Shown one piece after another: positions 5,708 to 20,944 of a stretch of DNA of 64,000 nt. Numbering within the stretch: the first letter of the stretch is position 1; every line of letters starts with the position of its first letter. Origin of the DNA: an uncultured Actinomycetes bacterium. Lineage in GTDB: Bacteria > Actinomycetota > Thermoleophilia > RBG-16-64-13. The position numbers were made by a program, and so were the translations under genes. The notes beneath the pieces are model-generated. The model saw only the letters and a list, made by a program, of their open reading frames with translations, made no database searches and was not told the DNA's origin. The stretch spans positions 736,001 to 800,000 of the forward strand of contig CAVPLM010000005.1 of the NCBI GenBank assembly GCA_963706025.1. The letters are read 5' to 3'.

Positions 5708-6067
5708 GTGACAATGGATGTAAGGGTGACCAGTCTCGAAGAGACGCCACTCGTCGAGGCTTGGGGAGACATAGACCACAATAGCTGCGGCTCCATCGAA
5801 GCAGTTCTCGACGGGGCTCTCGCGTCCGGTAGCGCCAATGTCCTTTTCGACCTGAGCCAGGTCACTTATATCGACAGCGGTGGGCTTTCTGTGCTGCTCT
5901 CCGCGGTGCGCTTGCTGCGCGATCGAGGCTGGCTGGGGGTCATCGGTCCCAACGCGAACGTGCGACGCCTTTTGGAGATCGTAGGGTTGCTGGTCGACCC
6001 CAACTTCCGGGTTTTTGAAGACAGAGAGACGGCTGCTGCAGCCCTTGCAGGACAGGTGACCGTCTGA
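5708..6067 (+). CDS. STAS-domain anti-sigma factor antagonist (RsbV/SpoIIAA-like)
   Basis: GDID...DLSQVTYIDSGGL...VRRLLEIVGL. Confidence 0.9.
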   Translation: MTMDVRVTSLEETPLVEAWGDIDHNSCGSIEAVLDGALASGSANVLFDLSQVTYIDSGGLSVLLSAVRLLRDRGWLGVIGPNANVRRLLEIVGLLVDPNFRVFEDRETAAAALAGQVTV

Positions 6068-6528
6068 TGCCCCCTGACGACTCGAGGTCGATCGACGATC
6101 TGAGACCGCCAGGCGATCCCACGTTCCACCGGGTCATCCAAGTCGAGGCTCAGACCTCCCGCCTGGCGGACGTGAGACGGTTCGTGGAGGAGGTGGCGAG
6201 CGATGCCGCTCTCGATCTGGAGCGGATCTTCGACCTCAAAGTAGCCGTCTCCGAAGCCTGCGCCAATGTCGTGGAGCATGCCGGCTGCCACCCTCTGCCC
6301 TTGGAGGTCAGCGCCCGGCTGCACGCCAGGCGCCTCACTTTCATCGTCACCGACAACGGCCCATTCCGGGCGCTTTCGTCGGCCCGTGAGGAATGTCGCA
6401 GCAGGGGGCTGGGGATGCCGCTCATGGTGGCGCTCATGGACGAGGTCAGCTTTGCTCGCGCCCCCGGCGGTGGCACCACGGTAAGCCTGTCGGTGCTTCT
6501 CGACCGGGCTACGGCTCAACCCGCCTAA
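6067..6528 (+). CDS. Anti-sigma factor Ser kinase (RsbW-like)
   Basis: DLKVAVSEACANVVEH, VTDNG, RGLGMPLM...DEV, GGGTTV. Confidence 0.88.
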   Translation: MPPDDSRSIDDLRPPGDPTFHRVIQVEAQTSRLADVRRFVEEVASDAALDLERIFDLKVAVSEACANVVEHAGCHPLPLEVSARLHARRLTFIVTDNGPFRALSSAREECRSRGLGMPLMVALMDEVSFARAPGGGTTVSLSVLLDRATAQPA

Positions 6529-6549
6529 GTCGGCGGCAGCCGCGAGGGC

Positions 6550-7617
6550 TTACCCGCTGCCGGCGAAGCGCACGTTCAACAAGTATCCCCCGGCTTGATC
6601 GCGGTCGACGAGACGTCCGATGACCGCGGCGGCCGAGGTGTCTCTGGCCGTCAGCGCCTGGACCGCTTCCGCCGTCCTCTCGGACGGCACCGCCAGGACG
6701 AGACCGCCGGACGTCTGGGCATCGGCGCACAGGAGCCTCTGCCAGGATTCCAGCCCCGGCTCGAAGCTGGTCCAGGGCTGCACGTACTCCAGGTTGCGCT
6801 TGGTCCCCCCGGGGATCACGCCTTGTCGCGCCAGTGTCTCCGCTTCAAAGAGCAAGGGTAACCGGTCGTACCAGACTTCCGCCGCCACCCCACTTGCCCG
6901 GCACAACTCACTGAGGTGGCCCAGGAGGCCGAAACCGGTGATATCCGTAAGCGCACGCGCACCACAGGCTCGGGCCACCTCGGCTGCATCGCGATTGAGC
7001 GCCGCCATGGTGGCGGTGGCGGCGGCGATGGCCTCTGCCGAAGCGTTTCCCTGCTTGATGGCGGTCGCGACTACTCCGGTGCCGAGCGGCTTGGTGAGCA
7101 CGAGGACGTCGCCGGGCCTGCCGGCTGCATTGGTCAATTCCTGTCCCGGCTTGATCAAGCCGGTGACGGCCAGCCCATATTTGGGCTCGGGGTCGTCGAT
7201 GGTGTGGCCACCGACGATGGTGGCCTCGGCGAGCCGGGCCGTCTCTGCCCCACCCTGCAGGATCCTCGCCAGGTACTCGAGCGGCAGGACGCCCGATGGG
7301 AAGCAGACGATATTGAGGGCAGTCAGAGGCCGACCACCCATCGCGTAGACGTCGGAGAAGGCGTTGGCGGCGGCGATGCGGCCGAAATCGTAGGGGTCGT
7401 CGACCACCGGTGTGAAGAAATCGACCGTCTGCACCAGGGCGATCTCATCAGTAAGGCGGTAGATGGCCGCATCATCCAGCGTGTCCGCCCCCACCAGAAG
7501 GGCGGGATCTTCCACCCGCGGCAGCATATCCATGACCTGCCCCAAGTCCTTGGGGCCCAGTTTGCAGGCTCAGCCTGAGCCGTGCGAGAGGGTGGTCAGC
7601 CTCGGGACCGCCTCCAT
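6550..7617 (-). CDS. selD: Selenide, water dikinase; selenoprotein (UGA16 = Sec)
   Basis: AAAGGAGGTG RBS, ATG at 7617, MEAVPRLTTLSHGSG-TGA(7572-7570)-ACKLGPKDL, continuing in frame into DDAA, QTVDFFTP, ANAFSDVYAMGG, TDITGFGLLGH and DAQTSGGL. Confidence 0.96.
7539..7556 (-). promoter_or_regulatory. SECIS-like hairpin of selD
   Basis: mRNA GCCCCAA-GGAC-UUGGGGC, starting 14 nt after the UGA, with a G-starting apical loop. Confidence 0.8.
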
Positions 7618-7640
7618 CGACCATCACCTCCTTTCGTCCA

Positions 7641-7679
7641 CGCCGGTTTCAGCGTCGCGCCGGTCTCAGCGTCGCGCCG
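7641..7679. repeat. 17-bp tandem repeat (x2.3) upstream of selD
   Basis: cgccggtttcagcgtcg / cgccggtctcagcgtcg / cgccg. Confidence 0.7.
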
Positions 7680-7818
7680 CTGTGCGGGTCGTCGCCCTGC
7701 GCATGTCACACCCATCTGTGCCTCACCTGTGCCGGCACGGGGAAACACTAGCAGACGACCGGTTCGCGGGCCAACCGCTCTGCCGGTGGACGGGCCCGCC
7801 GGCCGACAGGTCCGCAGC

Positions 7819-7856
7819 CGATCACCCCGCCGGGCGATCACCCCACCGGGCGATCA
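7819..7856. repeat. 16-bp tandem repeat (x2.4) between selD and the Fur-family gene
   Basis: cgatcaccccgccggg / cgatcaccccaccggg / cgatca. Confidence 0.7.
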
Positions 7857-7892
7857 ATCCGCCCGCGCCCCTTCGCTGCACAACGTGTGCGA

Positions 7893-7926
7893 TTGACACC
7901 TGCATGCTCTTGCAATAGAGTTGCAA
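7893..7926 (+). promoter_or_regulatory. Sigma70 promoter overlapped by a Nur-type operator
   Basis: TTGACA(7893)-N17-TAGAGT(7916). TTGCAA-N5-TTGCAA at 7910-7926 covers the -10. Confidence 0.75.
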
Positions 7927-7931
7927 TAACC

Positions 7932-8384
7932 ATGACTCATCATGCCACCCGCACCTTGCAGGAATTGGGCTACCGACTGACCCCCCAGCGCACGCTCGTG
8001 TGGGACGTGCTTCGCGAGCACGGAGCCCACATGAGCGCCGAAGATGTCTGCGTCAGAGTTCAGGAGCAGTTCCCCCACATCAACATGTCCACCGTATATC
8101 GCACCCTGGAGCTATTGGTGGACCTCGATCTGGTGAGAGAGACGCATCTCGGTCCCACCCGGCGCTTCTTCGAAGTGGAAGAAGAGATCCCTCACCATCA
8201 CCTGGTCTGCGAGGTATGCGGTCGGGTGACTCACGTGCACGACGAAGACCTGGGAGATCTGAGCGCCCTTCTGCTTCGCGAGCAGGACCACTCGGTCCGA
8301 GAAGTGACGGTGTTCGGCCTTTGCAGCACCTGCCGAATCGACGCGGAAGGAGGAAGCCGGTGCACATCCCCGACGGATTCGTAG
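7932..8384 (+). CDS. Fur-family metalloregulator, Nur-like
   Basis: GYRLTPQR, INMSTVYRTLELL, HHHLVCEVCG, FGLCSTC. First gene of the Ni/Co ECF operon. Confidence 0.9.
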   Translation: MTHHATRTLQELGYRLTPQRTLVWDVLREHGAHMSAEDVCVRVQEQFPHINMSTVYRTLELLVDLDLVRETHLGPTRRFFEVEEEIPHHHLVCEVCGRVTHVHDEDLGDLSALLLREQDHSVREVTVFGLCSTCRIDAEGGSRCTSPTDS

Positions 8385-9424
8385 ACATCCCCACGGCTGT
8401 GGCCACAGGGGTGGTTTCGCTGGGTACGGTGGCCTATGCAGTGCGCAAGACCAGCAAGGACCTCGGCGAGCGGACCATCCCCCTCATGGGCGTGACCGCA
8501 GCCTTCATCTTCGCCGCCCAGATGCTCAACTTCCCGGTGGCCGGGGGCACGAGCGGGCACTTCCTGGGGGCGATGCTTGCGGTCGCGCTCTTGGGGGTGT
8601 GGCCGGCCCCCATAGTGATGACCGTGGTCCTCGTGGTCCAAGCCCTGGGCATGGCAGACGGGGGTATCACGGCGCTGGGAGCCAACGTGTTCAACATGGG
8701 TGTGGTCGCGGTGTTCGTCGGCTACGGGGTCTTTGTTGGACTCAAGAAGATCCTCCCCCGCACCCTCCCCGGCTATCTGGTCTCGGTGGCCGTGGCCTCT
8801 TGGATCTCGGTGGTCGCGGCGTCGGCCGCCGCCTCTGCCGAGCTGGCCATCTCGGGAACCGTGCCGCTGGGCGTGGCTCTCCCCGCGATGGTCTCCGTGC
8901 ACATGGTCATCGCAATCGGTGAGGCCCTGATCACCACCGTGGTGGCAGCCGCGGTCCTTGCCACCCGCCCCGATCTGGTCAAGACCTTCGACCTGCCTCT
9001 CGAGACCGTCCGCCGCACCGCCGGACGGCCGGTCGCCCGTATGAGCGGAAGAGCCCGCTTCTGGTCGTTCGTCGCCGGTGCGGTGGTCGTTGCCGTCGCC
9101 TTAGCGGTGTTCGTCTCTCCGTTCGCTTCCGGCTCTCCAGACGGCCTGGAGAAGGTGGCGGCGGACAGGGGCTTCGAAACCGCGGCGGCCGAGGAACCGA
9201 CGTGGGGCCTCTCTCCGCTCGGCGACTACCAGCTCCCCGGAGTCGGCAACGAGAAGGTGGCCACGGCGATCGCCGGGTTGTTGGGCACGGTCGTCCTTTT
9301 CGCCCTTGTCGTCCTCGCGGGGCGCGCATTGAGCGGCCGTCGACTCACCCCGGCCGTGCAGCCTGCGGGAACGAACAGAGGTTCCGGCAACGCGCCGCCC
9401 CCTGATCCCTCCGGCAAGCCCTAG
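8360..9424 (+). CDS. Ni/Co ECF transporter substrate component, NikM/CbiM fused to a PDGLE (NikN) domain
   Basis: GTG at 8360 gives N-terminal MHIPDG; also AFIFAAQMLNFP, GTSGH and C-terminal SPDGLEKVA. Confidence 0.92.
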   Translation: MHIPDGFVDIPTAVATGVVSLGTVAYAVRKTSKDLGERTIPLMGVTAAFIFAAQMLNFPVAGGTSGHFLGAMLAVALLGVWPAPIVMTVVLVVQALGMADGGITALGANVFNMGVVAVFVGYGVFVGLKKILPRTLPGYLVSVAVASWISVVAASAAASAELAISGTVPLGVALPAMVSVHMVIAIGEALITTVVAAAVLATRPDLVKTFDLPLETVRRTAGRPVARMSGRARFWSFVAGAVVVAVALAVFVSPFASGSPDGLEKVAADRGFETAAAEEPTWGLSPLGDYQLPGVGNEKVATAIAGLLGTVVLFALVVLAGRALSGRRLTPAVQPAGTNRGSGNAPPPDPSGKP

Positions 9425-9464
9425 GGCGTGCCCTCGCCGGATAGCCGGATAGGATGACCACAAG

Positions 9465-10243
9465 ATGGCGCTGACCGGGGTCGACTCCCTACTCACCGAG
9501 ACCCGCGCAGTGGCAAAGCCGGCTGCACCGGCTCGATGCACGGGCCAAGATCCTGGGATTCATCGGGTTCACGGTGGTGGTGGTCACGACGCCGGCTCTG
9601 CCCGTATGGCCCTTCGTGCTCTACGCCGGGATCCTGTTCTTCCTCATCGGCGTCTCGCGTCTCCCGCTCAAGCATGTGCTCGGGCGCGCCCTCGTGGTGC
9701 TCCCCTTCATCCTGGTCGTTGCCATCTTCTTGCCTTTCTTCCATCAGACCGGAGGCGGCGGCTACAGCCTGGGCGGCATGCGGGTGACCGGCGAAGGCCT
9801 GCTCGTTCTGTGGAACGTGGGAGCGAAAGCCGTCCTGGGCGCACTCAGCATGATCGTGCTCGGTTCGACCACCACTTTCGCCGAGATGGTCTCGGGTTTC
9901 GAGCGCTTGAAGACGCCCAAGATCTTCGTCCTCATCGTGAGTTTCATGTACCGGTACAGCTTCGTGTTCATCGAGGAACTGGGGCGCATGCGGCGCGCTA
10001 TGACTGCCCGCAACTACCGAGCACGTTGGCTATGGAACGTGCCCACCCTGGGCTACATGCTGAGCGCCCTTTTTCTGCGCAGCTACAGCCGCGGGGAGCG
10101 GGTGTACGTAGCCATGCTCAGCCGTGGCTACGAGGGTACGGTGAGACTGCTCGAGGGGAGCCGGTTCGGAGCGGTCGACGCCGTCTTCCTCGGCGGCCTC
10201 TCTGCTGGCCGTGGTCTCGATCCGCGCGCTCTCAGCGCTGTGA
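9465..10243 (+). CDS. cbiQ: Ni/Co ECF transporter T component (CbiQ/NikQ); frameshifts ~9505 and ~10200
   Basis: LHRLDARAKI, FMYRY..., FLRSYSRGERVYVAMLSRGY. Natural end LLAVVSIRALSAL-TGA overlaps the GTG of cbiO. Confidence 0.85.
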
Positions 10244-11061
10244 AGAGCGCCCTGAGTCCGAAGCTGCAAAGCCTGACCGGCAGGCCGTTCCCCGAAGGAC
10301 AGCCGCCGGCCGTGGAGGCCGAAGACCTCCATTTCGCCTATCCAGACGGCACTGAGGTCTTGCGGGGGGTGGGATTCACCATCCGGCAGGGCGAGTCGGT
10401 GGCCATCATCGGCCCCAACGGGGCGGGCAAGACCACTCTCCTCCTCCACCTGAACGGTATCCTCCGCGGCACGGGAAGCCTCCGCATATTCGGCCTAGCC
10501 GTCGAGGACAAGAACCTGCGCGAGATACGCCGCAAGGTAGGCGTAGTCTTCCAGGATCCTGAGGACCAGCTGTTCCTCACCAGCGTGGCCCAGGATGTGG
10601 CGTTCGGACCGGCCAACATGGGCCTAGAGAAAGACGAGATCGCCCTCCGGGTCAAAGAGGCGCTCGCTGCGGTGGGCATGCAGGGGTATGCAGACCGTCC
10701 CGCCCACCATCTTTCGTTCGGCCAGAAGAAGCGTGTCGCCACCGCGACCGTCCTGGCCATGCGTCCGGAGATCCTTGTGCTGGACGAACCTTCGTCCAAC
10801 CTGGACCCCAAGTCCCGGCGTCAGCTCATTCGCATCCTGCAAGACCTGCCGGTCACCAAGATCATAGTCACCCACGACCTTCCGGTGGCCTACGAGCTGT
10901 GCGACCGGGCGCTGATCTTGGCGGAGGGGCGGATCATGGCCGATGGACCCACAGAAGACATACTGCTCGACAAGGCCCTCCTCGCGGCTCACGATCTGGA
11001 GCTGCCCTACGGTTTCGTCCCACCCCGGTTGTCAGCTCATGGGCTCCGTGGGCGGCTGTAG
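10240..11061 (+). CDS. cbiO: Ni/Co ECF transporter ATPase (CbiO/NikO)
   Basis: GPNGAGKTT, VFQDPEDQLF, LSFGQKKR, LDEP. Confidence 0.92.
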   Translation: MKSALSPKLQSLTGRPFPEGQPPAVEAEDLHFAYPDGTEVLRGVGFTIRQGESVAIIGPNGAGKTTLLLHLNGILRGTGSLRIFGLAVEDKNLREIRRKVGVVFQDPEDQLFLTSVAQDVAFGPANMGLEKDEIALRVKEALAAVGMQGYADRPAHHLSFGQKKRVATATVLAMRPEILVLDEPSSNLDPKSRRQLIRILQDLPVTKIIVTHDLPVAYELCDRALILAEGRIMADGPTEDILLDKALLAAHDLELPYGFVPPRLSAHGLRGRL

Positions 11062-11235
11062 GGGCATGACCAACCAGAGGATGATGTAGAGAAGGATCCC
11101 CACCCCAACCAGCAGGGTCAGGGCTATCCAGATGACCCGCACCAGGGTGGGGTCGACGTTGAAATACTCCGCCAGGCCTCCACAGACCCCGCCGAGTATC
11201 TTCTCGGTCCGGGACCGCTGCAAACGCTTCTCCAT
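11032..11235 (-). CDS. PspC-domain protein
   Basis: RLQRSRTEKILGGVCGGLAEYFNVDPTLVR...LYIILWLVMP. Confidence 0.92.
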   Translation of the reverse strand: MEKRLQRSRTEKILGGVCGGLAEYFNVDPTLVRVIWIALTLLVGVGILLYIILWLVMPLQPPTEPMS

Positions 11236-11284
11236 GTGAGTCTCCTTTTCTAGCCCGTCCCACGCGCCTCCGCGTGCAGAACGG

Positions 11285-11488
11285 TCAGCGGTCGCCGCGG
11301 TCGGCGATCTGTTCGCGATACAGGTCGGTGTTGTACATCACGCATTCACTGTTCACGCAGTACCACACCCGGTAGGTGCTGCACTCGCCCGTCGAGCGAC
11401 TGACGCCTGTGCCGGTGCGCTCCGCTTCCTCGACCCGATCGGCGAGGGGCTTGCTGCAATTGATGCAGGTCTTGACCTCGTCTACCAC
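11285..11488 (-). CDS. Small Cys-rich, Zn-ribbon-like hypothetical protein (67 aa)
   Basis: AAGGGGAG RBS, GTG start; CINC...WYCVNSEC; fills the gap in a co-directional cluster. Confidence 0.65.
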   Translation of the reverse strand: MVDEVKTCINCSKPLADRVEEAERTGTGVSRSTGECSTYRVWYCVNSECVMYNTDLYREQIADRGDR

Positions 11489-11514
11489 CTGACTCCCCTT
11501 CCCAGATAGCGTGT

Positions 11515-12114
11515 TTACCCTGTGCGCGTGCCCCGTGGCCGCCCCAACCGGCGACCGATGTCCTCGGCTACCGCTCGAGCCTCGGGGTGTTCCAGTATCT
11601 CGCCCTTGGCGTCCACGCCCGGGCACAGCAGATCGCCCGCCGGTGACACCTCCAGCATATGCCAGAAGGTGCGCATCACCAGGCGGCATCCGTCGAAGAC
11701 GTAGTCGAACGAAGTGCCGGAGCAACTCAGGAACGCCCCCAATCTCTCCGGGCGGCCCGGTTCGGTGATGGCTTGCTTCAGCACGTACTTGAGCGCCCAG
11801 AAAGGCTGGCAGCGGTCGATCACCATCTTGGGGACCGCCGGAATGCCCATGGAGTACACCGGGGCGGCCAGTACGATCGAATCGGCGTTCCGCAGTTGCG
11901 GATAGAGCAGATGCATGTCGTCCTTCTGTATGCATACGCCATCGCGCGAGCAGGCGTCGCAGGCCCGGCAGCCGTGAAGATCGAGGTCGCAGAGCCGGAA
12001 CTTGACCACTTCGGCGCCCTCGTCCGCGGCTGCGGCCAGGCACCAGTCGAGAAGGGTCTCAGTGTTCCCGTCACGACGGGCGCTACCCGCCAGACCGAGC
12101 ACGGTCATGGTCAC
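11515..12114 (-). CDS. Iron-sulfur flavoprotein / NADPH-dependent FMN reductase family
   Basis: GSARRDGNT, CRACDAC...CIQKDDM, AAPVY, KMVIDR. Confidence 0.9.
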   Translation of the reverse strand: MTMTVLGLAGSARRDGNTETLLDWCLAAAADEGAEVVKFRLCDLDLHGCRACDACSRDGVCIQKDDMHLLYPQLRNADSIVLAAPVYSMGIPAVPKMVIDRCQPFWALKYVLKQAITEPGRPERLGAFLSCSGTSFDYVFDGCRLVMRTFWHMLEVSPAGDLLCPGVDAKGEILEHPEARAVAEDIGRRLGRPRGTRTG

Positions 12115-12119
12115 CTACT

Positions 12120-13328
12120 CTACTCCCCCGCCGTCTTGACTTTGCGGGCCACCTGCCGGCCCAATTCCACGCATGCTGCCAGCTCGTCCTCGCTGGGCCT
12201 GTACTTGACCTCGATCGGCTCCACCATGTCGAGGCCCATGGCCCTGAGTTCCGCATCGATCTGCTTCACGGCCCCTCCGGCCCACCCACAGGAGCCGTAG
12301 GCTCCGGAGATGCGCTTGCGCGGCCGAAGACCCCGGATGTAGGTGAGGAACTCCCCTACTGTCGGGAACATGTTGTTGTTGAGGGTAGGCGACCCCACCA
12401 GGAAAGCGCGGGACTCGAGGACCATCCGCGCCACCTCCGACCGGGGGTTGCTGCTGAGCCTCGCGACCACGCAGTCCACGCCCTCTTGAGCGACGCCGTC
12501 CGCGATGGCCATGGTCATCTGCTCGGTGGAGTGCCACATGGTGTCGTAGATCAGCGACACCCGCTCCGGCGCCTGGAAGTCGCTCCACCCCGCATAGGCC
12601 TCCACAATGCGAGCCACGTCCTCGGGCCGGCGCCATATGACCCCGTGGCTGGGGCCGATCGCCTCGATCTCCAGACCCAGCTCGCCGATCTTGGCCAGCA
12701 TCTTCTGGATCTGAGTGCCGAATGGCATGAGGATGTTGGCGTAGTACTTACTGGCCTCTTCCATGACCACGCTCAAGTCGACTTCGTCGGCGAAGCGCTT
12801 GGAGGTGGCCAAGTGCTGACCGAAGGCATCGTTCGGCAGAAGGGTCTTGGCCTGCTTCACGTAGGTGAACATGCTGTCCGGCCAGTGCAGCATGGGCGCC
12901 TCGATGAACTGCAGAGTATTGCGACCGAGGGAGACCTCGTCTCCGGTGCCGACCACCTGGATATTCCAACCATCCACGGTCGCGCCCCCGTAGTAGACGG
13001 CAAGCACGTCCTTGGCCCTTTTCGAACAGAAGATCCGCTCGGGGCTCAGCTGCTCCACCAGCCAGGGGATGGCCCCGGAGTGATCGGGCTCCACGTGGTT
13101 GATGATCAGGTAGTCGACTGGGCGGAGGCCGCAGCAGCCGCGCACGCGAGCCAGCACCTCCGGGCCGAAGCCCTCCCGGCATCCGTCGACCAGAGCCACC
13201 TTCTCGTCCAGGATCAGATACGCGTTATAGGTGGTCCCCCGGGGGGTCTCGTAGCCGTGGAAATCACGGACGTTCCAGTCGATGGCACCCGTCCACCATA
13301 TGTCGTCCTTCAGCAGATACCGCTCCAT
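12120..13328 (-). CDS. fprA: Flavodiiron protein (O2/NO reductase)
   Basis: GTTYNAYLI, NHVEPDHSG, LHWPDSM, DAFGQH; flavodoxin part YDTMWHST, GSPTLNN, GWAGGA. Confidence 0.95.
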   Translation of the reverse strand: MERYLLKDDIWWTGAIDWNVRDFHGYETPRGTTYNAYLILDEKVALVDGCREGFGPEVLARVRGCCGLRPVDYLIINHVEPDHSGAIPWLVEQLSPERIFCSKRAKDVLAVYYGGATVDGWNIQVVGTGDEVSLGRNTLQFIEAPMLHWPDSMFTYVKQAKTLLPNDAFGQHLATSKRFADEVDLSVVMEEASKYYANILMPFGTQIQKMLAKIGELGLEIEAIGPSHGVIWRRPEDVARIVEAYAGWSDFQAPERVSLIYDTMWHSTEQMTMAIADGVAQEGVDCVVARLSSNPRSEVARMVLESRAFLVGSPTLNNNMFPTVGEFLTYIRGLRPRKRISGAYGSCGWAGGAVKQIDAELRAMGLDMVEPIEVKYRPSEDELAACVELGRQVARKVKTAGE

Positions 13329-13336
13329 TCACGCTC

Positions 13337-13549
13337 CTACTCGGTCACGCCTTCGTCGCAATAGTAGCCTTTGGTCAGCCCATACTCGGGCCAGAGCGGA
13401 CAGTCGCCGCACGCGCAGCCCCGCCGGCGCACAGATCCGAGGCTCTTGCCCCTGGCGCAGTAGAAGTCCAGGTCGTCCTGGGGTTTTGAAGGGCACTCCC
13501 CGCAGATGCATTTCGCCATGTTCTCTTCTGTGTCCGGCACCTTGCCCAC
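13337..13549 (-). CDS. DUF2769-like Cys-rich small protein
   Basis: GAGGAGG RBS; CICGECPS...FYCARGKS...GCACGDCP...YYC. Confidence 0.8.
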   Translation of the reverse strand: MGKVPDTEENMAKCICGECPSKPQDDLDFYCARGKSLGSVRRRGCACGDCPLWPEYGLTKGYYCDEGVTE

Positions 13550-13587
13550 TATCGCCTCCTCTTCTCGAAGCCGCGGTCTAGTCTGGC

Positions 13588-13613
13588 CTGCCCGCTACGG
13601 CTCTTTCGTAAAC
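13588..13613 (-). promoter_or_regulatory. Putative SigB/SigF-type promoter
   Basis: Minus strand GTTT-N16-GGGCAG upstream of DUF2769-fprA. Confidence 0.45.
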
Positions 13614-13664
13614 CTTCCTGCACGTTTCGACCGGCGCCTTCGGCCGGCCGCAAACCTGGGACAT

Positions 13665-14651
13665 TCAAACTCGAAGTCGCCTGCCCAGGACAAGCTGGGC
13701 TCCGGTCGTCTCCAGGTCCAGGACCTCGATCTCGACAAAACCGGCCGCCGTAAGCCAATCACGGTACTGTTCCTCAGTCCAGACCCCACCCTCCTCGGTC
13801 GCCTGAAGCATGTTCACCGCGAACCGGGCCGCCCGAGGGCTCCGTCCCCACACGTGATCCTGGATGGCGATCGTCCCCCCAGGGAGAAGGATCGAAAAGA
13901 CCTCCTGGGTCACGCGCCCGTTCGTCACCGGGCCGTAGATGTGTAGGACGTTGCCCAGATACACCAGGTCGAACGGGCCGACGGGAAGGGATTGCGTGAA
14001 GTCCCCCCCCACCAGGGCGATATCACTCCCCTCGTCGCCCAGGAACTCGCGGGCAAGGGGGAGCACGTTCTCCCGGTCGAACAACGTGGCCCGCACCCCA
14101 CATCGGGAGAAGTGCCGGGCCACGTGGCCAACGGCGCCCCCCACATCCAGCATGGTGCGGGCCGGACCAGAGTAGGCCAGACACCTCTCGACTATCTCGT
14201 CGAGCACGGCCGGGTCGCGCTCCCCCATCGCCCCCACCAGGGTGCGGACGTCGCGTTGGGCAGGATCGCGAGGAAGAGGCCGCCCCGTGCGGATGACCTC
14301 GGGCAGCTCGAGCCAGCCCCGCAGCTTGTTCACCTGGTGCATCAGGCCGAACCGCTCCGATTCCGGACCCTCGTCCACAAGATGCGCTCTCCCCAGCGCC
14401 GATAACCGATAGAGGGCGCCCCCGTCGCCAGGGTCCTCCGGAGCGCCTCCGAGCCGCTCGACGACGCCCTCCCCCGCCAGAGCCTCGAGCACGATTCGAG
14501 TCGCCCGAGGATGTGCTTCCGCTCTCTGGGCCGCGGCCTCGGCCGTCAAAGCTTCGCCCGTCGCCAAGGCGTCGATCAGACCGGAGCGCAGGGCCCCAGC
14601 GAGCAACAGCAGCCGCTCCACCGCTGCTCCATCTACCAGCGAGTTCTTCAT
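13665..14651 (-). CDS. SAM-dependent methyltransferase (O-MT family 2, N-terminal dimerisation domain)
   Basis: MLDVGGAVG, LFDR, VGGDF, DLVYLGNVLHIYG, LLPGG. ATG at 14651 overlaps the upstream stop (ATGA). Confidence 0.88.
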   Translation of the reverse strand: MKNSLVDGAAVERLLLLAGALRSGLIDALATGEALTAEAAAQRAEAHPRATRIVLEALAGEGVVERLGGAPEDPGDGGALYRLSALGRAHLVDEGPESERFGLMHQVNKLRGWLELPEVIRTGRPLPRDPAQRDVRTLVGAMGERDPAVLDEIVERCLAYSGPARTMLDVGGAVGHVARHFSRCGVRATLFDRENVLPLAREFLGDEGSDIALVGGDFTQSLPVGPFDLVYLGNVLHIYGPVTNGRVTQEVFSILLPGGTIAIQDHVWGRSPRAARFAVNMLQATEEGGVWTEEQYRDWLTAAGFVEIEVLDLETTGAQLVLGRRLRV

Positions 14652-15868
14652 GACTTCTCCAAGGGGAAGCCGGCCGCCTTCCATTCGCCCACACCACCGG
14701 CAAAATCCCGCACGTTCGTGAAACCCAACTGTCGCAGCTTATCAGCTGCGATAGCGCTGGCTTCTCAGGTGAAGGCGTCGCAGTAGAGGACGATGGGCTC
14801 GTCCACCTTGAACCGCTGCCGGGCCTCGCGGGCCAGACCCCTGAAGTCCATCCACTCGGACCCGGGTAGATGCCCTGCCCGCCAGTGCTTCTCACCCAGC
14901 ACGTCGACAAGGCGGAAATGCTCCTGTCCATCCATCAATCCCCGAAGATCCTGGACCGTGATCGTACCGACGCTCGGTCGGCCGGCCTCGGGATCGTAGA
15001 AGACCATGTAGGCGGCGGCGCTGTAGTATCCGGCCTTTCGGAAGATGCGCCGCCGGCCGGGCTCAGCCGCATCGATAACCGCGGCCGGCCGGCTACCTTC
15101 TCTCCAAACAGCTTCGGTGCACCGGCCAAGCGCCCAGGCCAGGTCGTCCTCGCCTGTGTGCGCGACGGCCAGATCGAGTAGCTCGTGCGTCCCGTCTCCT
15201 CCGTCAAGCCGAGCGATCACGGCAACAGGATGCCCGTCCTGCAGCAGCGCCCAGCTGCGCCCCTGGCGGGCCAAGGTATCGAGTTCGGCGACGATCGAGG
15301 CCTGGTCGGCCTTCGAGTGGCTATGCGATCCGGGCTCGTGCTCGTGCTCACCGCCGGCACGTTCCAGCAACTCCCTAAGACCAGGCAGGTGCTCGGGGCC
15401 AAGCTCGACGACCACAACCCCCGCGGGAGCCTGTGCCGCGGCTTCGCCCGCGATCTCACCCGGCTCCTCGGGTAGCATGACCAAAGCAGCCGCCTCCACC
15501 TCGTTTCCCCTAGCCAGCAACGTGGCGTTTAGCCGGCAGTCGTCGGTGCGGACCAGGTAGGCGGTGGGACGCAGGCGCTCCCTGACCAGATCGAGCACGT
15601 CCTCGTAGCGGGTTTGGTGAGCGGCCGTCAGGTACAACTCGACCACAGTAATGTGCGTGTGCCCGCTATGCGGCCTCTCGACGGCCAAGACGTAGCCCAA
15701 GTCCTGCTGTGGCCCTTCGGCTCCGCCGGCCTCTTGGACCAAGTGAGCCGCCGCCTCCCGGCTCAAGCGAGAGTAGAACTCGGGTACGACCGCCAACGAA
15801 GATCCGCGCTGTCTCTCTTCGCGCAGGCTCGCGATCCGTTCTGGATCGACCTGAGTCAGCTCCATCAT
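14648..15868 (-). CDS. Tandem GNAT-like + rhodanese fusion; predicted selenoprotein (C-x4-U)
   Basis: The ORF track stops at TGA 14767-14765 after VLYCDAFT. Read-through gives U-EASAIAADKLRQLGFTNVRDFAGGVGEWKAAGFPLEKS*, which completes the rhodanese fold. A SECIS-like hairpin follows the UGA. Confidence 0.88.
14732..14751 (-). promoter_or_regulatory. SECIS-like hairpin of the rhodanese selenoprotein
   Basis: mRNA UCGCAGCU-GAUA-AGCUGCGA: a perfect 8-bp stem starting 14 nt after the UGA, with a G-starting loop. Confidence 0.8.
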
Positions 15869-16007
15869 CTACTTCCCTGGCGGACGACGAACGAGAGCAT
15901 GGCCATCTCCTCGTTACCGATCGCCGCGGCGATCGGCGGGTGTTGCTGGACCACCCCGTGGACGAACGCGCTGGTCTTCCCTTTCCCGTAGCACTAGAAT
16001 CCCACGC

Positions 16008-16436
16008 ATGTGGGTGAGTGTACACGCCTTGTCCGGTCTGACGCTGGGGGCCTTGGCGCCGCTGGGAATGGTCCTGACGGTCGTTTGCGCTCTCGTGCTG
16101 CACCTGCTCCTGGACCTGGTGCCGCACTGGGACTATACGGGACACCGCCTCCGCACCTTGTGGGCGTTTCTGGATGTAGCCGTTTCGATCGCCGCGGTCG
16201 TGACGCTCGCCCTCGTTCTGGATCTGCCCGGCCGGGCCGTCGTGGCCGCTATCGTCTCCGCTCTCCCCGACCTCGACGTGTTCGATGCGGTCCTACCCGG
16301 TTCGAAGCATCGGCGTTGGTTTCCCAGTCACTGGCGAGGATTTCCTCATGGCAGGGCAAGTCCCCTGGTAGGCATCCTCCTGCAGGCGGTCGTCGCCCTG
16401 GGTGCTATCGTCATATTGGTCGTGTCGGCCGAGTGA
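16008..16436 (+). CDS. Hypothetical membrane protein, possibly metal-binding hydrolase-like
   Basis: Hydrophobic helices with His/Asp motifs (VHALSG, LHLLLDLVPHWD, LPDLD, FPH). TAGAAT -10 lies just upstream, suggesting a leaderless mRNA. Confidence 0.7.
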   Translation: MWVSVHALSGLTLGALAPLGMVLTVVCALVLHLLLDLVPHWDYTGHRLRTLWAFLDVAVSIAAVVTLALVLDLPGRAVVAAIVSALPDLDVFDAVLPGSKHRRWFPSHWRGFPHGRASPLVGILLQAVVALGAIVILVVSAE

Positions 16437-17903
<1,467 letters not shown>

Positions 17904-17968
17904 CCACCGAGTCCGAGGTGCCTTGGGAGGAGGTCGCCGGCCGGCCGTCGCGGCCGGCTGGGAGGAAC

Positions 17969-20944
17969 ATGTCCGAAGTGCCACAACCTATGAAACTCGA
18001 TTGGAGTCACGCCTACGACTTCCAGCACTTGATGGCCCGCCGGGTGGAGAACATCATCCTGGCGTCGAGCACGTACGACACTTTCATCCTCCAGGAAGAC
18101 GGGCAACTGGGTGAATTGATACTGGGCGAGTTCCTGGACCTGAATCTGCACCACACCACAGGGCTCACGCATGTGTCCAGCGGCACCGAGGCCATCGCCC
18201 TGGCCAAGGCGGAGACCCGGTTCAATCTGATCGTCAGCGCAGTGAACCTCGGCGACATGAACGCCGCCCAGTTGGCTCACGAGGCGCGGGAGGCAGGCCT
18301 CGATATCCCTGTGGTCATCCTGGCCTACGACGGCGGTGAGTTGGCGGAGTTCATGTCTCGATACGACACCTCGGAGATCGAGCGCATCTTCCTGTGGGAG
18401 GGCGACTCCCGCATCCTCCTCGCCATCACCAAGTACATCGAAGACAAGCTCAACGTGGCCTACGACACGGGAGTAGCCGGCGTCCAGGTCATCCTCCTCA
18501 TCGAGGACAACATCCGCTACTACTCCGCCTTCCTGCCCATGATCTACACAGAGATCATCCACCACTCGCAGAGCGTTATCGCCGAAGGTGTCAACACGGC
18601 CCACAAGATCCTGCGCATGCGGGCACGCTCCAAGATCCTCCTGTGTTCTACCTTCGAGGAGGCTTGGGAGCACTTCTCCGCCTATCAGGAGGACGTGCTG
18701 GGGGTGATATCGGACATCGAATTCCCCCAGGAAGGCAGGCTGAACCCCGAAGCAGGTATGGAGTTCGCCCGCCGTGTGAAGGGTGCCTGGAAGGACATCC
18801 CCGTCCTCCTCCAATCGAGCCGTCCCGAGAGCGAGACCCTGGCCCGAGAAGTGGGAGCCGATTTCCTACTCAAGGGCTCACCCACGCTTCTGGACGACCT
18901 CCGCCGGTTCATGGTCGACAACTTCTTCTTCGGTGACTTCATCTTCCAACTCCCCGACGGCACGCCGGTGGGACGGGCGAAGGACATGAAGAGCCTGCTG
19001 GAGATGCTGCGCAGCGTACCGACCGAGTCGATCACATACCATGCGGAGCGCAACGACTTCTCCCGGTGGCTGAAAGCACGCACGGAGTTCCACCTCGCGC
19101 ACCATCTCCGCCCACGCACCGCCGCCGACTACGACACGCTGGAGGGCCGCCGCCGCTATCTCATCGAGGAGATAGACGCCTACCGGCGCGAGCTCACCCG
19201 GGAATCGGTGACCGATTTCGATCCGACCACGTTCGACCCCGAGAACAGCTTCGCCCGCATCGGTGAGGGCTCCCTGGGCGGAAAGGCCCGAGCCCTAGCG
19301 TTCGTGCGCCACCTGCTACGCGATTTCGGCGTGATCGACCAGTTCCCGGGTATGCAGATCACCGTCCCCCCCTGCGTGGTGCTCGGCACGGACGTCTTCG
19401 ATCTCTTCCTCCAAGAGAACGACCTGCGCCCGTTTGCGATGGAGACCGATGACGACCTCGCGATCGAGGAGCGCTTCCTGGGGGCCTCGTTTCCCGCGGA
19501 GGTGGAGAAGAAGCTGGCAGCGTTCCTCGATCTGGTCCACTACCCTCTGGCGGTGCGCTCGTCCAGCCTGCTCGAGGACTCTCAGTATCAGCCCTTGGCC
19601 GGCGTTTACGACACGTATATGCTCCCCAATAACCACCCGCACCGCGCGGTCCGTCTCTACCAGCTGATAAGAGCGGTCAAACGCGTCTTCGCTTCGACCT
19701 TCCTCACCTACGCCAAGAACTACTTCAAGGTCACCCCGTACCGTTTGGAAGAAGAGAAGATGGCGGTGATCATCCAGAAGGTCGTGGGCGCGCACCACGG
19801 GGGCCGTTTCTACCCCTCGTTCGCCGGAGTAGCACGATCCTACAACTTCTACCCCTCCCCTCCCCTCGCGGCAGCGGACGGTGTGGTCACAATGGCACTG
19901 GGCCTCGGCCGCACCGTCGTCGACGGCGGCCGCGCCCTGTCTTTCTGCCCGAGTTACCCCCAAAACCTGATGCACTTCTCCACGGTCGAAGACATGCTTG
20001 CCAACTCACAGCGGGATTTCATCGCCCTTGAGCTTGACGGCCAAAGTGACGAGACCACGGAACGCCACCACCCTCTGGCCACCGCTGAGACCGACGGCAC
20101 CCTGGGGCCGGTGGCGTCCACCTACTCACCCGAGAACGATACCGTGTACGATGGCATCTCCCGGCCAGGCATCCGCTTGGTGAGCTTCGCCCCCATCCTC
20201 AAGCAGCGCAGCCTCCCCCTTCCCGCGGCACTCGACCGGCTGATGGAGCTGGGACGTTGGGGGATGAACACCGAAGTAGAGATGGAGTTCGCTGTAGAAC
20301 TGTCTCGATCGGCGGAAACGCCCATCGATTTCGGTTTCTTGCAGATGCGCCCCATGGCTCTATCCCGGGAGCTGGAGGAACTGGATACCGAGAACGTCGA
20401 CCCGGTTCAGGTGCTCGTACGTTCGAGTAGCGTGCTCGGCAACGGCAAGCTTACGCACGTCAGGGACTTGCTGGTGGTCGATCACGCCCGCTTCGACAGA
20501 GCCAGGAGTCTAGAGATCGCTACGGAGGTCGCCCGTTTCAACGCGGAGTTGGTCGCCGGGGGCATCCCCTACATCTTGATAGGACTGGGCCGCTGGGGAT
20601 CGGCCGATCCCTGGTTGGGCATCCCTGTTACCTGGGAGCAGATCTCCGGCGCCCGCGTGATCGTGGAATCCGGCCTGAAGGACATCAAGGTCACGCCTTC
20701 ACAGGGCAGTCACTTCTTCCAGAACCTGACTTCGTTCAGGGTCGGCTACTTCACCGTCAACCCCGAGACTGGGGAAGGATCGCTCGACTGGGACTGGCTG
20801 GAGGCCCAACCCTCCCACCAAGAGGCAGCGTTCGTGCGGCATCTCCGCTTCTCCCACCCCCTGGTGGTCAAGATCGACGGGAAGCATCAGCGCGGGGTGA
20901 TCCTGAAGCCGGGCGCCGGCCTGGGCGAGGCCGGTCAGGCCTAG
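17969..20944 (+). CDS. Receiver-like domains + PEP/pyruvate-binding (PPDK-N) protein, gdhA-associated
   Basis: ILLIEDN and VISDIEFP receiver-like motifs; [55 protein letters not shown]. Confidence 0.88.

Follow-up and report, generated by a model that had tools for sequence, protein, structure and literature searches.

The window analysed here is a stretch of 64,000 nucleotides (nt) from an uncultured Actinomycetes bacterium (contig CAVPLM010000005.1, positions 736,001 to 800,000). The source genome (G000) is a metagenome-assembled genome (MAG) of 3.66 Mb in 30 contigs, 92% complete and with 7.3% contamination. The minus strand of the window holds an open reading frame (ORF) of 367 codons (14765..15868), whose C-terminus ...IVLYCDAFT is followed by a TGA at 14767-14765. 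When this UGA is read as selenocysteine (Sec), the frame gains 38 codons, EASAIAADKLRQLGFTNVRDFAGGVGEWKAAGFPLEKS, before it meets another TGA at 14650-14648. This stop shares letters with the ATG of the downstream ORF (ATGA, 14651-14648). The read-through product has 406 amino acids, with Sec at codon 368 (U368). We conclude that the gene at 14651..15868 very probably encodes a selenoprotein, in which a Sec-containing rhodanese domain is fused to a degenerate tandem GNAT module. The features on which this reading builds, including a hairpin resembling a selenocysteine insertion sequence (SECIS), are:

14651..15868, minus strand: coding sequence of the predicted selenoprotein, 406 codons, Sec codon 368, stop TGA 14650-14648; orthologues align over residues 1-406 through the TGA
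14765..14767, minus strand: in-frame UGA, probably read as Sec (U368); TGA in 31 of 32 distinct loci, TGT in one, Cys in five full-length relatives
14732..14751, minus strand: SECIS-like hairpin; 5' arm 14751-14744, loop GAUA 14743-14740, 3' arm 14739-14732
14648..14651, minus strand: ATGA overlap of the selenoprotein stop with the methyltransferase start, as read in the sequence

With read-through, the protein matches the whole Pfam rhodanese profile PF00581 (residues 305-399, profile positions 2-102 of 102, 47.1 bits with a cut-off of 22.2). The ORF ended at the first TGA matches this profile poorly. The full match needs read-through, and thus the first stop falls in the middle of a domain. 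A first-pass annotation of this DNA had claimed just this, namely that the ORF breaks off mid-domain at the TGA after YCDAFT, and furthermore that Sec read-through adds the rhodanese C-terminus and leads to a new stop overlapping the next ATG. Both statements hold, the former because the rhodanese profile is complete only with read-through and the latter directly in the sequence.

When 5.8 billion proteins were searched by a word index, 98 hits came up, of which the first 90 (P0002-P0091) were inspected. No fewer than 82 of these relatives stop four residues past YC, right before the position of the TGA. Five are full-length and carry Cys at the Sec position (YCKGFTCEA, YCNGFACEA, YCNGFSCEA, YCNGFRCEA and YCNGLACEA), and the remaining three are fragments. 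The expectation that standard pipelines would cut the gene short is therefore borne out by 82 of the 90 entries, NCBI-sourced ones included.

At the DNA level, a search covering 401 genomes of the class found the gene in 33 of 60 other genomes of the window's own taxonomic family, i. e. in 34 of 61 with G000, and in none of the 340 genomes of eleven other sampled families. So far the protein family is confined to this one family of Thermoleophilia. In 29 of the 30 loci from this search the aligned codon is TGA; in the remaining one (G118, L020) it is TGT. A scan of species-representative genomes yielded 32 loci, all in MAGs labelled Gaiellales, Thermoleophilia, Actinomycetes, Actinomycetota or 'bacterium'. 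After merging both sets and dropping duplicates, 32 distinct loci remain, 31 with TGA and one with TGT (L020/L066); the carriers are closely related, so that counts across them are not independent. The alternation of Cys and TGA for which the first-pass annotation had suggested to look is thus present both in the loci and in the database proteins with their 5 Cys forms and 82 shortened forms.

The tblastn matches of the orthologues extend to residues 404-406. Past the UGA the residues are conserved and the synonymous sites are free: Leu+13 uses five codons, Gly+14 and Val+18 four each, Arg+19 again five, and Asp+20 is GAC in 17 cases and GAT in 11. Residues that are kept while synonymous sites vary are the signature of translated sequence. 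The same TGA together with the hairpin is found in 31 of the 32 distinct orthologous loci, a recurrence far beyond chance.

Damaged copies were encountered in two genomes. In one locus (L044 / L070, G183:C9) a one-base deletion soon after the hairpin shifts the frame, and a C-terminus beginning GSQTCVTTLEDW replaces the rhodanese end, which points to either a pseudogene or a misassembly. In another genome, of the same genus, the gene was matched in three pieces on one contig (G228:C12:53253-54539), and a second partial copy lies at a contig end (G228:C9:36-579), its two pieces holding one and two TGA, respectively. Frameshifts, duplication or a mixture of strains are possible reasons.

The hairpin, UCGCAGCU-GAUA-AGCUGCGA (14751-14732), begins at the 14th nt after the UGA. 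A stretch of 51 nt starting with the UGA folds with -24.9 kcal/mol (z = -5.07), and none of 200 shuffled sequences was equally stable. Bacterial SECIS elements are stem-loops situated shortly downstream of the UGA, with a G in the apical loop. Here the stem-loop lies 14 nt past the UGA and its loop reads (N)GAUA(A), in agreement with this description. In the Sec forms the codons of the loop and the 3' arm are frozen: GAT, AAG and CGA each occur in 31 of 31 sequences and CTG in 30 of 31. GAT and CGA would be unexpected codon choices for a GC-rich genome. In the 5' arm two GCN codons vary at the third position, which the stem tolerates; one position is a G.U pair in 21 sequences, an A-U pair in 7 and a mismatch in 3. 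The closing pair is formed in 22 of the 31 sequences, and the consensus of the protein family is a 7-bp stem (29 of 29 Sec forms) with a 6-nt loop N-G-A-U-A-A. Hence the position assigned to the hairpin by the first-pass annotation, 14 nt after the UGA, stands, whereas its perfect 8-bp stem with a GAUA loop is a property of the source genome and does not extend to the family. In the Cys form L020 the peptide IAADKLRQL is kept, coded as GCC GCC GAC AAG CTG AGG, and the hairpin is absent (z -1.27).

The source genome has the machinery for Sec insertion. It contains a gene for tRNA-Sec (79.1 bits; SeC(tca) according to ARAGORN), SelA (449.7 bits), SelB, recognised by its wing domain (65.8 bits), and SelD (388.1 bits). 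The gene of the last shares a contig with the selenoprotein gene and has one in-frame TGA:

6550..7617, minus strand: selD, UGA at 7572-7570; itself a selenoprotein, HGSG-U-ACKLGP

The genes selA, selB and that for tRNA-Sec are grouped within about 14 kb on another contig (G000:C3:273762-288072). A Sec-type selD is the rule across the taxonomic family, with one TGA in 47 of the 57 matches listed. Among the 34 carrier genomes, SelA was found in 28, the six without it being 51-84% complete, and a SelD match was found in all 34. The presence of selA, selB, tRNA-Sec and a Sec-type selD, proposed beforehand as a check, is thereby confirmed. The offset of the hairpin had also been said to equal that in selD. 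By eye this is correct, as a stem-loop GCCCCAA-GGAC-UUGGGGC can be read in selD from the 14th nt after its UGA. The computed fold does not bear it out: the stem appears only in the centroid structure, where it is shortened, and not in the minimum-energy structure (z -0.49; 61 of 200 shuffles equally stable).

We infer with high confidence that Sec is inserted at codon 368 in a SelB-dependent manner. The UGA would be decoded by the SelA/SelB/tRNA-Sec/SelD system of the host, and the recoding would be directed by the SECIS-like hairpin 14 nt downstream, within the coding region.

The TGA itself is well supported by sequencing data. Contigs from three DNA runs belonging to three studies span 14765-14767, and no difference is listed there. 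For the spanning contig of X1 all four differences are listed, none of them at the TGA; for those of X2 and X4 all but two differences each are listed. This speaks against a sequencing error at these three positions. The runs in which half or more of the sampled words occur carry labels of freshwater or sediment metagenomes.

The architecture of the protein was studied with an AlphaFold2 model computed from a 39-row alignment, with a mean predicted local distance difference test score (pLDDT) of 87.4 and a predicted template modelling score (pTM) of 0.74. The domains and conserved residues are:

15464..15868, minus strand: first GNAT-fold domain, residues ~1-135 (AlphaFold2 model, 3iwg_A, Foldseek)
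15653..15670, minus strand: His cluster H67-x2-H70-x-H72; H70 and H72 invariant, H67 at least 90% conserved (alignments A1, A3)
15536..15544, minus strand: conserved D109-D110-C111, located past strand 5 in the first GNAT domain; no variation of D109 or C111 in A1
15302..15352, minus strand: His-rich linker, residues ~173-189; length-variable, pLDDT <50 at 175-186
14984..15421, minus strand: second GNAT-fold domain, residues ~150-295, without the R/QxxGxG acetyl-CoA loop
14654..14977, minus strand: rhodanese domain, residues ~298-405 (PF00581 47.1 bits, 3tp9_A)
14780..14782, minus strand: Cys363, the canonical rhodanese catalytic Cys; C-x4-U, five residues before Sec368; invariant in A1

Residues 2-293 match the tandem GNAT protein 3iwg_A (Z 22.9, root-mean-square deviation (rmsd) 3.4, 257 residues aligned). 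Tandem GNAT structures lead the fold searches, Foldseek among them; other matches are MshD (1ozp, Z 16.6), the tandem GNAT of the clavulanate pathway, glucosamine N-acetyltransferase and VipF. Residues 298-405 match the rhodanese 3tp9_A (Z 17.3, rmsd 1.6, 104 aligned, 32% identity). No Pfam GNAT model matches the protein at E<=1; only PF00581 is found. A profile of the N-terminal module, run against 1.84 billion representatives, detected 30 proteins, including seven stand-alone proteins of 254-294 residues. Five of the stand-alone relatives (P0122, P0125, P0130, P0131 and P0135) pass the Pfam cut-off for Acetyltransf_1, and the three best-scoring ones keep the R-x-x-G-x-G loop (YRGRGYG, LRGRGVG and YRSKGYG). 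At the corresponding position the selenoprotein family has AHTGEDDLAWAL / PHVPDGQQVWAL (AHTGEDD / PHVPDGQ), which departs from motif A.

The His pattern extends to H67-x2-H70-x-H72-x-T74, invariant or nearly so, on strands of the first domain. It is not conserved in the stand-alone tandem-GNAT relatives. D109/D110 are kept in these relatives as well, C111 mostly not. Judged from the alignments, the GNAT module has lost the pyrophosphate loop for acetyl-CoA and has gained a cluster H-x2-H-x-H / D-D-C. These His3/Asp/Cys residues may line the usual GNAT cleft and bind a metal. The segment EHEHEPGSHSH (residues ~174-184) lies in a disordered linker of low model confidence, which is long and His-rich in some orthologues and absent from a short subgroup. 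What the first-pass annotation had said of the N-terminal part agrees with these data: two degenerate GNAT folds, here recovered by structure prediction and fold search; a missing R/QxxGxG motif, replaced here and kept in distant stand-alone relatives; and a His-rich insert, which proved to lie in a length-variable loop. Longer forms of the protein were not seen among 8000 candidates, which is weak evidence, and a look for shorter relatives of the rhodanese part gave only 16 candidates, fragments of the same family.

The active-site loop reads C-D-A-F-T-U-E-A-S, with Cys363 kept and Sec368 at the second position. In the HMMER alignments Cys363 falls on the Cys of the catalytic loop in 3tp9 and 6mxv. 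Classical active sulfurtransferases have a loop of six residues, C-R-x-G-x-[RT]. The loop described here departs from it, being two residues longer than that of 3tp9 or 6mxv and having no Arg. The stretch YCDAFT(U)EAS aligns without a gap to YCRGPYCALS of the ArsR-rhodanese P0096. Thus Sec368 stands where ArsR-rhodaneses and the Cys forms of the family have their second Cys.

A possible interpretation, which we put forward tentatively, is that of a two-chalcogen rhodanese. In the manner of rhodaneses, Cys363 would bind sulfane sulfur or selenium, forming a persulfide or perselenide. Sec368 would then act as the resolving or attacking nucleophile, giving a selenenylsulfide Cys-S-Se-Sec. The domain would be a redox-active persulfide/polysulfide centre rather than a plain thiosulfate sulfurtransferase, and the GNAT-derived module would serve as a platform for binding a small molecule or metal, with no acyltransferase activity. 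A more elaborate scheme seems improbable, namely a clade-specific selenoenzyme with a novel type of reaction, in which the GNAT-derived module, having traded its acetyl-CoA site for a His3/Asp/Cys site for a metal or ligand, holds a small-molecule substrate at the Cys-x4-Sec loop, sulfur or selenium is inserted or removed there and the neighbouring methyltransferase, coupled to it in translation, methylates the product. If it were true, it would mean an unseen route to or from a thio- or seleno-metabolite in uncultured sediment Gaiellales.

The genes that follow the selenoprotein gene directly are:

13665..14651, minus strand: O-methyltransferase-like gene, family 2; Pfam Methyltransf_2 plus Dimerisation domain
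13337-13549, minus strand: DUF2769 Cys-rich protein of 70 amino acids, CICGECP...CACGDCP, between the methyltransferase and a flavodiiron protein

The closest solved relative of the methyltransferase is MfnG (E 1.7e-19). Its gene lies directly downstream of the selenoprotein gene in all 30 loci. The DUF2769 gene is seen in 7 of the 30 loci within short flanks, and in more of them in longer flanks. Farther downstream follow a flavodiiron protein, an FMN reductase, in some genomes an ECF transporter of the Co/Ni type, and then selD. In 25 of the 34 carriers selD shares contig and strand with the selenoprotein gene and follows it at a distance of 2.3-18 kb; in G318 the order gene, methyltransferase, DUF2769, FMN reductase, selD is compressed into ~3.5 kb.

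This arrangement might suggest that the protein handles selenium and is no sulfur or persulfide enzyme: it could pass perselenide to SelD, or selenium to the methyltransferase for methylation or detoxification. A rhodanese-bound perselenide as a selenium donor is a familiar idea, and both the Sec-type selD downstream, particularly close in G318, and the adjacent methyltransferase would suit it. Yet the methyltransferase occurs in 58 of the 61 genomes of the taxonomic family and the selenoprotein gene in 34. In three genomes without the gene (G112, G076 and G163) the block of methyltransferase, DUF2769, flavodiiron protein, FMN reductase and selD is kept and the slot between the membrane protein/GDH and the methyltransferase is empty. 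The linkage is thus family-wide synteny and not a specific co-occurrence, and the counts moreover come from carriers that are close kin. Since the block persists without the gene, the context says little about any specific chemistry. For these reasons the conserved neighbours were rejected as specific evidence of a role in selenium metabolism, and we regard selenium handling as rather unlikely, below the two-chalcogen rhodanese in probability.

In a further locus (L083, G094:C8, 8397-8528) all that is left of the gene is its final ~130 nt, in which both the CGCAGCTGATAAGCTGCGA hairpin and the ATGA junction are intact. This remnant directly abuts the divergent membrane-protein gene and lies next to the methyltransferase; it is a deletion scar. 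The block kept without the gene and this scar together indicate that the gene is ancestral to the taxonomic family and has been lost repeatedly.

Some further observations concern the surroundings. The synteny block (~5866-17903, and L077-L086) comprises GDH, a membrane protein of 142 amino acids, the selenoprotein gene where present, the O-methyltransferase, DUF2769, the flavodiiron protein, the FMN reductase, optionally CbiM/CbiQ-ABC, selD and a protein of 217 amino acids past selD that has no Pfam match. Oxygen-defence genes adjoin selD, and G010 adds a rubrerythrin. At 8000-11061 on the plus strand, between the FMN reductase and selD, lies an uptake system of the ECF type for cobalt/nickel, in which domains are fused in an unusual way: CbiM with PDGLE in an ORF of 474 amino acids and CbiQ with an ABC ATPase in one of 495. 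Another gene on the plus strand, at 17918-20944, encodes a protein of 1008 amino acids with a PPDK_N domain (PEP-utilising, ATP-grasp) at residues 452-819; its N-terminus weakly matches a response-regulator receiver and DUF5752.

Several results weigh against the assignment as a selenoprotein or against the chemistry proposed for it. In the hairpin, none of the 7 stem pairs covaries according to RNAalifold, as the stem is invariant. With no covariation, the case for an RNA constraint rests on the local freezing of synonymous sites and its release in one Cys form, and the Cys side of this argument is a single DNA sequence (L020). Rfam gives no match to a SECIS family in 14600-14900; a sub-threshold hit to Scr2736 (23.8 bits with a threshold of 43, plus strand) was taken as chance. 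The relative P0018 ends in ...LYSSGFT, with Ser in place of the otherwise invariant Cys363. The gene is missing from 27 of the 61 genomes of the taxonomic family though the flanking block stays, hence it is dispensable, and the neighbours, selD and the methyltransferase included, are present with or without it. Metatranscriptome contigs from X18 cover only 14853-15102 and 15704-15939, at a depth of ~2 and with 95-99% likeness, and do not cover the UGA. They were not counted as evidence of expression, as they do not reach the UGA and could stem from DNA carry-over.

Two other explanations of the UGA have to be weighed against Sec. It could be a true stop, so that the gene makes a protein of 367 residues with a cut rhodanese domain and the following 38 codons are an untranslated remnant. 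This is how the 82 shortened database entries are annotated, and UGA does serve as an ordinary stop in this genome, even at the end of the selenoprotein gene itself. However, the 38 codons are conserved as protein in 31 loci, with free synonymous change and at overall identities as low as ~37%; they supply the missing part of the rhodanese fold, the Cys forms read straight through, and the hairpin and the Sec machinery are present. Termination at this codon is therefore very improbable. Equally slight, and favoured by nothing specific, is the chance that near-cognate decoding, suppression or an alternative code places Trp, Cys or Gly at the UGA. The sole sense codon found at the position is one for Cys (TGT), the classic partner of Sec; the frozen hairpin sits at the distance of that of selD from the same genome, the selD stem being read by eye; and TGA is not generally a sense codon, as it serves as the ordinary stop of the gene and its neighbours. 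A sequencing or assembly error or a pseudogene in the source genome, for which one might invoke its status as a MAG with 7.3% estimated contamination and the damaged relatives (the frameshift in G183, the gene in pieces in G228), has next to no probability, as the same TGA stands in 31 independent assemblies and in contigs of three runs from three studies. Read-through with Sec hence remains our reading of codon 368.

This reading has consequences on several levels. Annotation goes wrong throughout the protein family: in 82 of 90 entries the C-terminal 38 residues are missing, and with them the key catalytic residue, and no NCBIfam model repairs this. To the catalogue it adds another form of Sec-rhodanese, with the canonical Cys kept and Sec at the second position of a C-x4-C-type loop. 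The natural Cys counterparts make the role of such a two-chalcogen loop testable. In terms of evolution, a GNAT tandem without its cofactor loop would have been reused beside a redox domain. In terms of ecology, the known selenoproteome of Thermoleophilia/Gaiellales, an uncultured lineage abundant in soil and sediment, is enlarged. Nothing known about Sec decoding is overturned.

Rhodaneses containing Sec have been described before. A 2007 paper, as far as its available part goes, reports eight genes for Sec-rhodaneses and, in worm symbionts, a UxU form, and the accessible portion of a 2022 review has several entries for Sec-containing rhodaneses. According to the available part of a 2026 review (PMC13188914), five forms exist: UxxS (form 1), UxxG (forms 2 and 4), CxU (form 3, NF041203) and UxxxxU (form 5, TsoB, NF045694). 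As in the protein described here, Sec lies in the active-site region of the PF00581 domain in forms 1-5, and all are predicted to be thiol-/selenol-based redox or sulfur-transfer proteins (PMC13188914, same portion). The local U-E-A-S fits form 1, with which it was compared by the description in that part of PMC13188914 only, and C-x4-U has the same spacing as the UxxxxU given there for TsoB. The protein itself scores far below the cut-offs of the two forms that have NCBIfam models, with 40.4 bits as against 115 for NF041203 (rhodanese_LYCAU) and 29.9 as against 805 for NF045694 (TsoB). The available texts of PMC13188914 and of the 2022 review contain neither the word GNAT nor acetyltransferase, and none of the five forms is presented there with a GNAT module; their supplementary tables, which may list the family, are outside this scope. 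Our literature search found no publication combining rhodanese, GNAT and selenocysteine, and for Gaiellales with selenocysteine only an ecology study.

With regard to the single domains, the ArsR/SmtB-rhodanese fusions P0096 and P0099 (YCRGP[YH]C) have a loop of the same length and register. They differ in the partner, which is the DNA-binding ArsR, and in having Cys, not Sec; the identity is ~30% over the rhodanese part. The tandem GNATs 3iwg (Colwellia), mycothiol synthase MshD (1ozp/2c27), 2wpw (clavulanate pathway) and glucosamine N-acetyltransferase (5kf1) share the two-domain fold of residues 2-293. In contrast to these, the protein described here has no Pfam GNAT match, its R/QxxGxG is replaced, His3 and Asp/Cys are gained, and a rhodanese domain follows at the C-terminus.

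Closest in the proposed function are the rhodanese fusions that handle persulfides, i. e. persulfide dioxygenase-rhodanese (5ve3, 3tp9), CoA-disulfide reductase-rhodanese (3ict) and NADH persulfide reductase (3nta). They include the closest solved rhodanese domain, that of 3tp9 (32% identity, Z 17.3); 5ve4 follows with 29% and Z 15.3. In 5ve3, 3tp9, 3ict and 3nta the rhodanese Cys works with a second redox centre in the same polypeptide, located in a separate domain with iron or flavin. In the predicted selenoprotein the second centre would instead be Sec in the very same loop, which is two residues longer and lacks Arg. The first-pass annotation had found the fusion architecture unfamiliar. 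This is correct for the fusion and probably for the sub-type, whereas the principle of a Sec-rhodanese was known (PMC13188914, in its available part): Sec in a rhodanese loop is already catalogued, and what is new is the fusion with GNAT and probably the C-x4-U sub-type.

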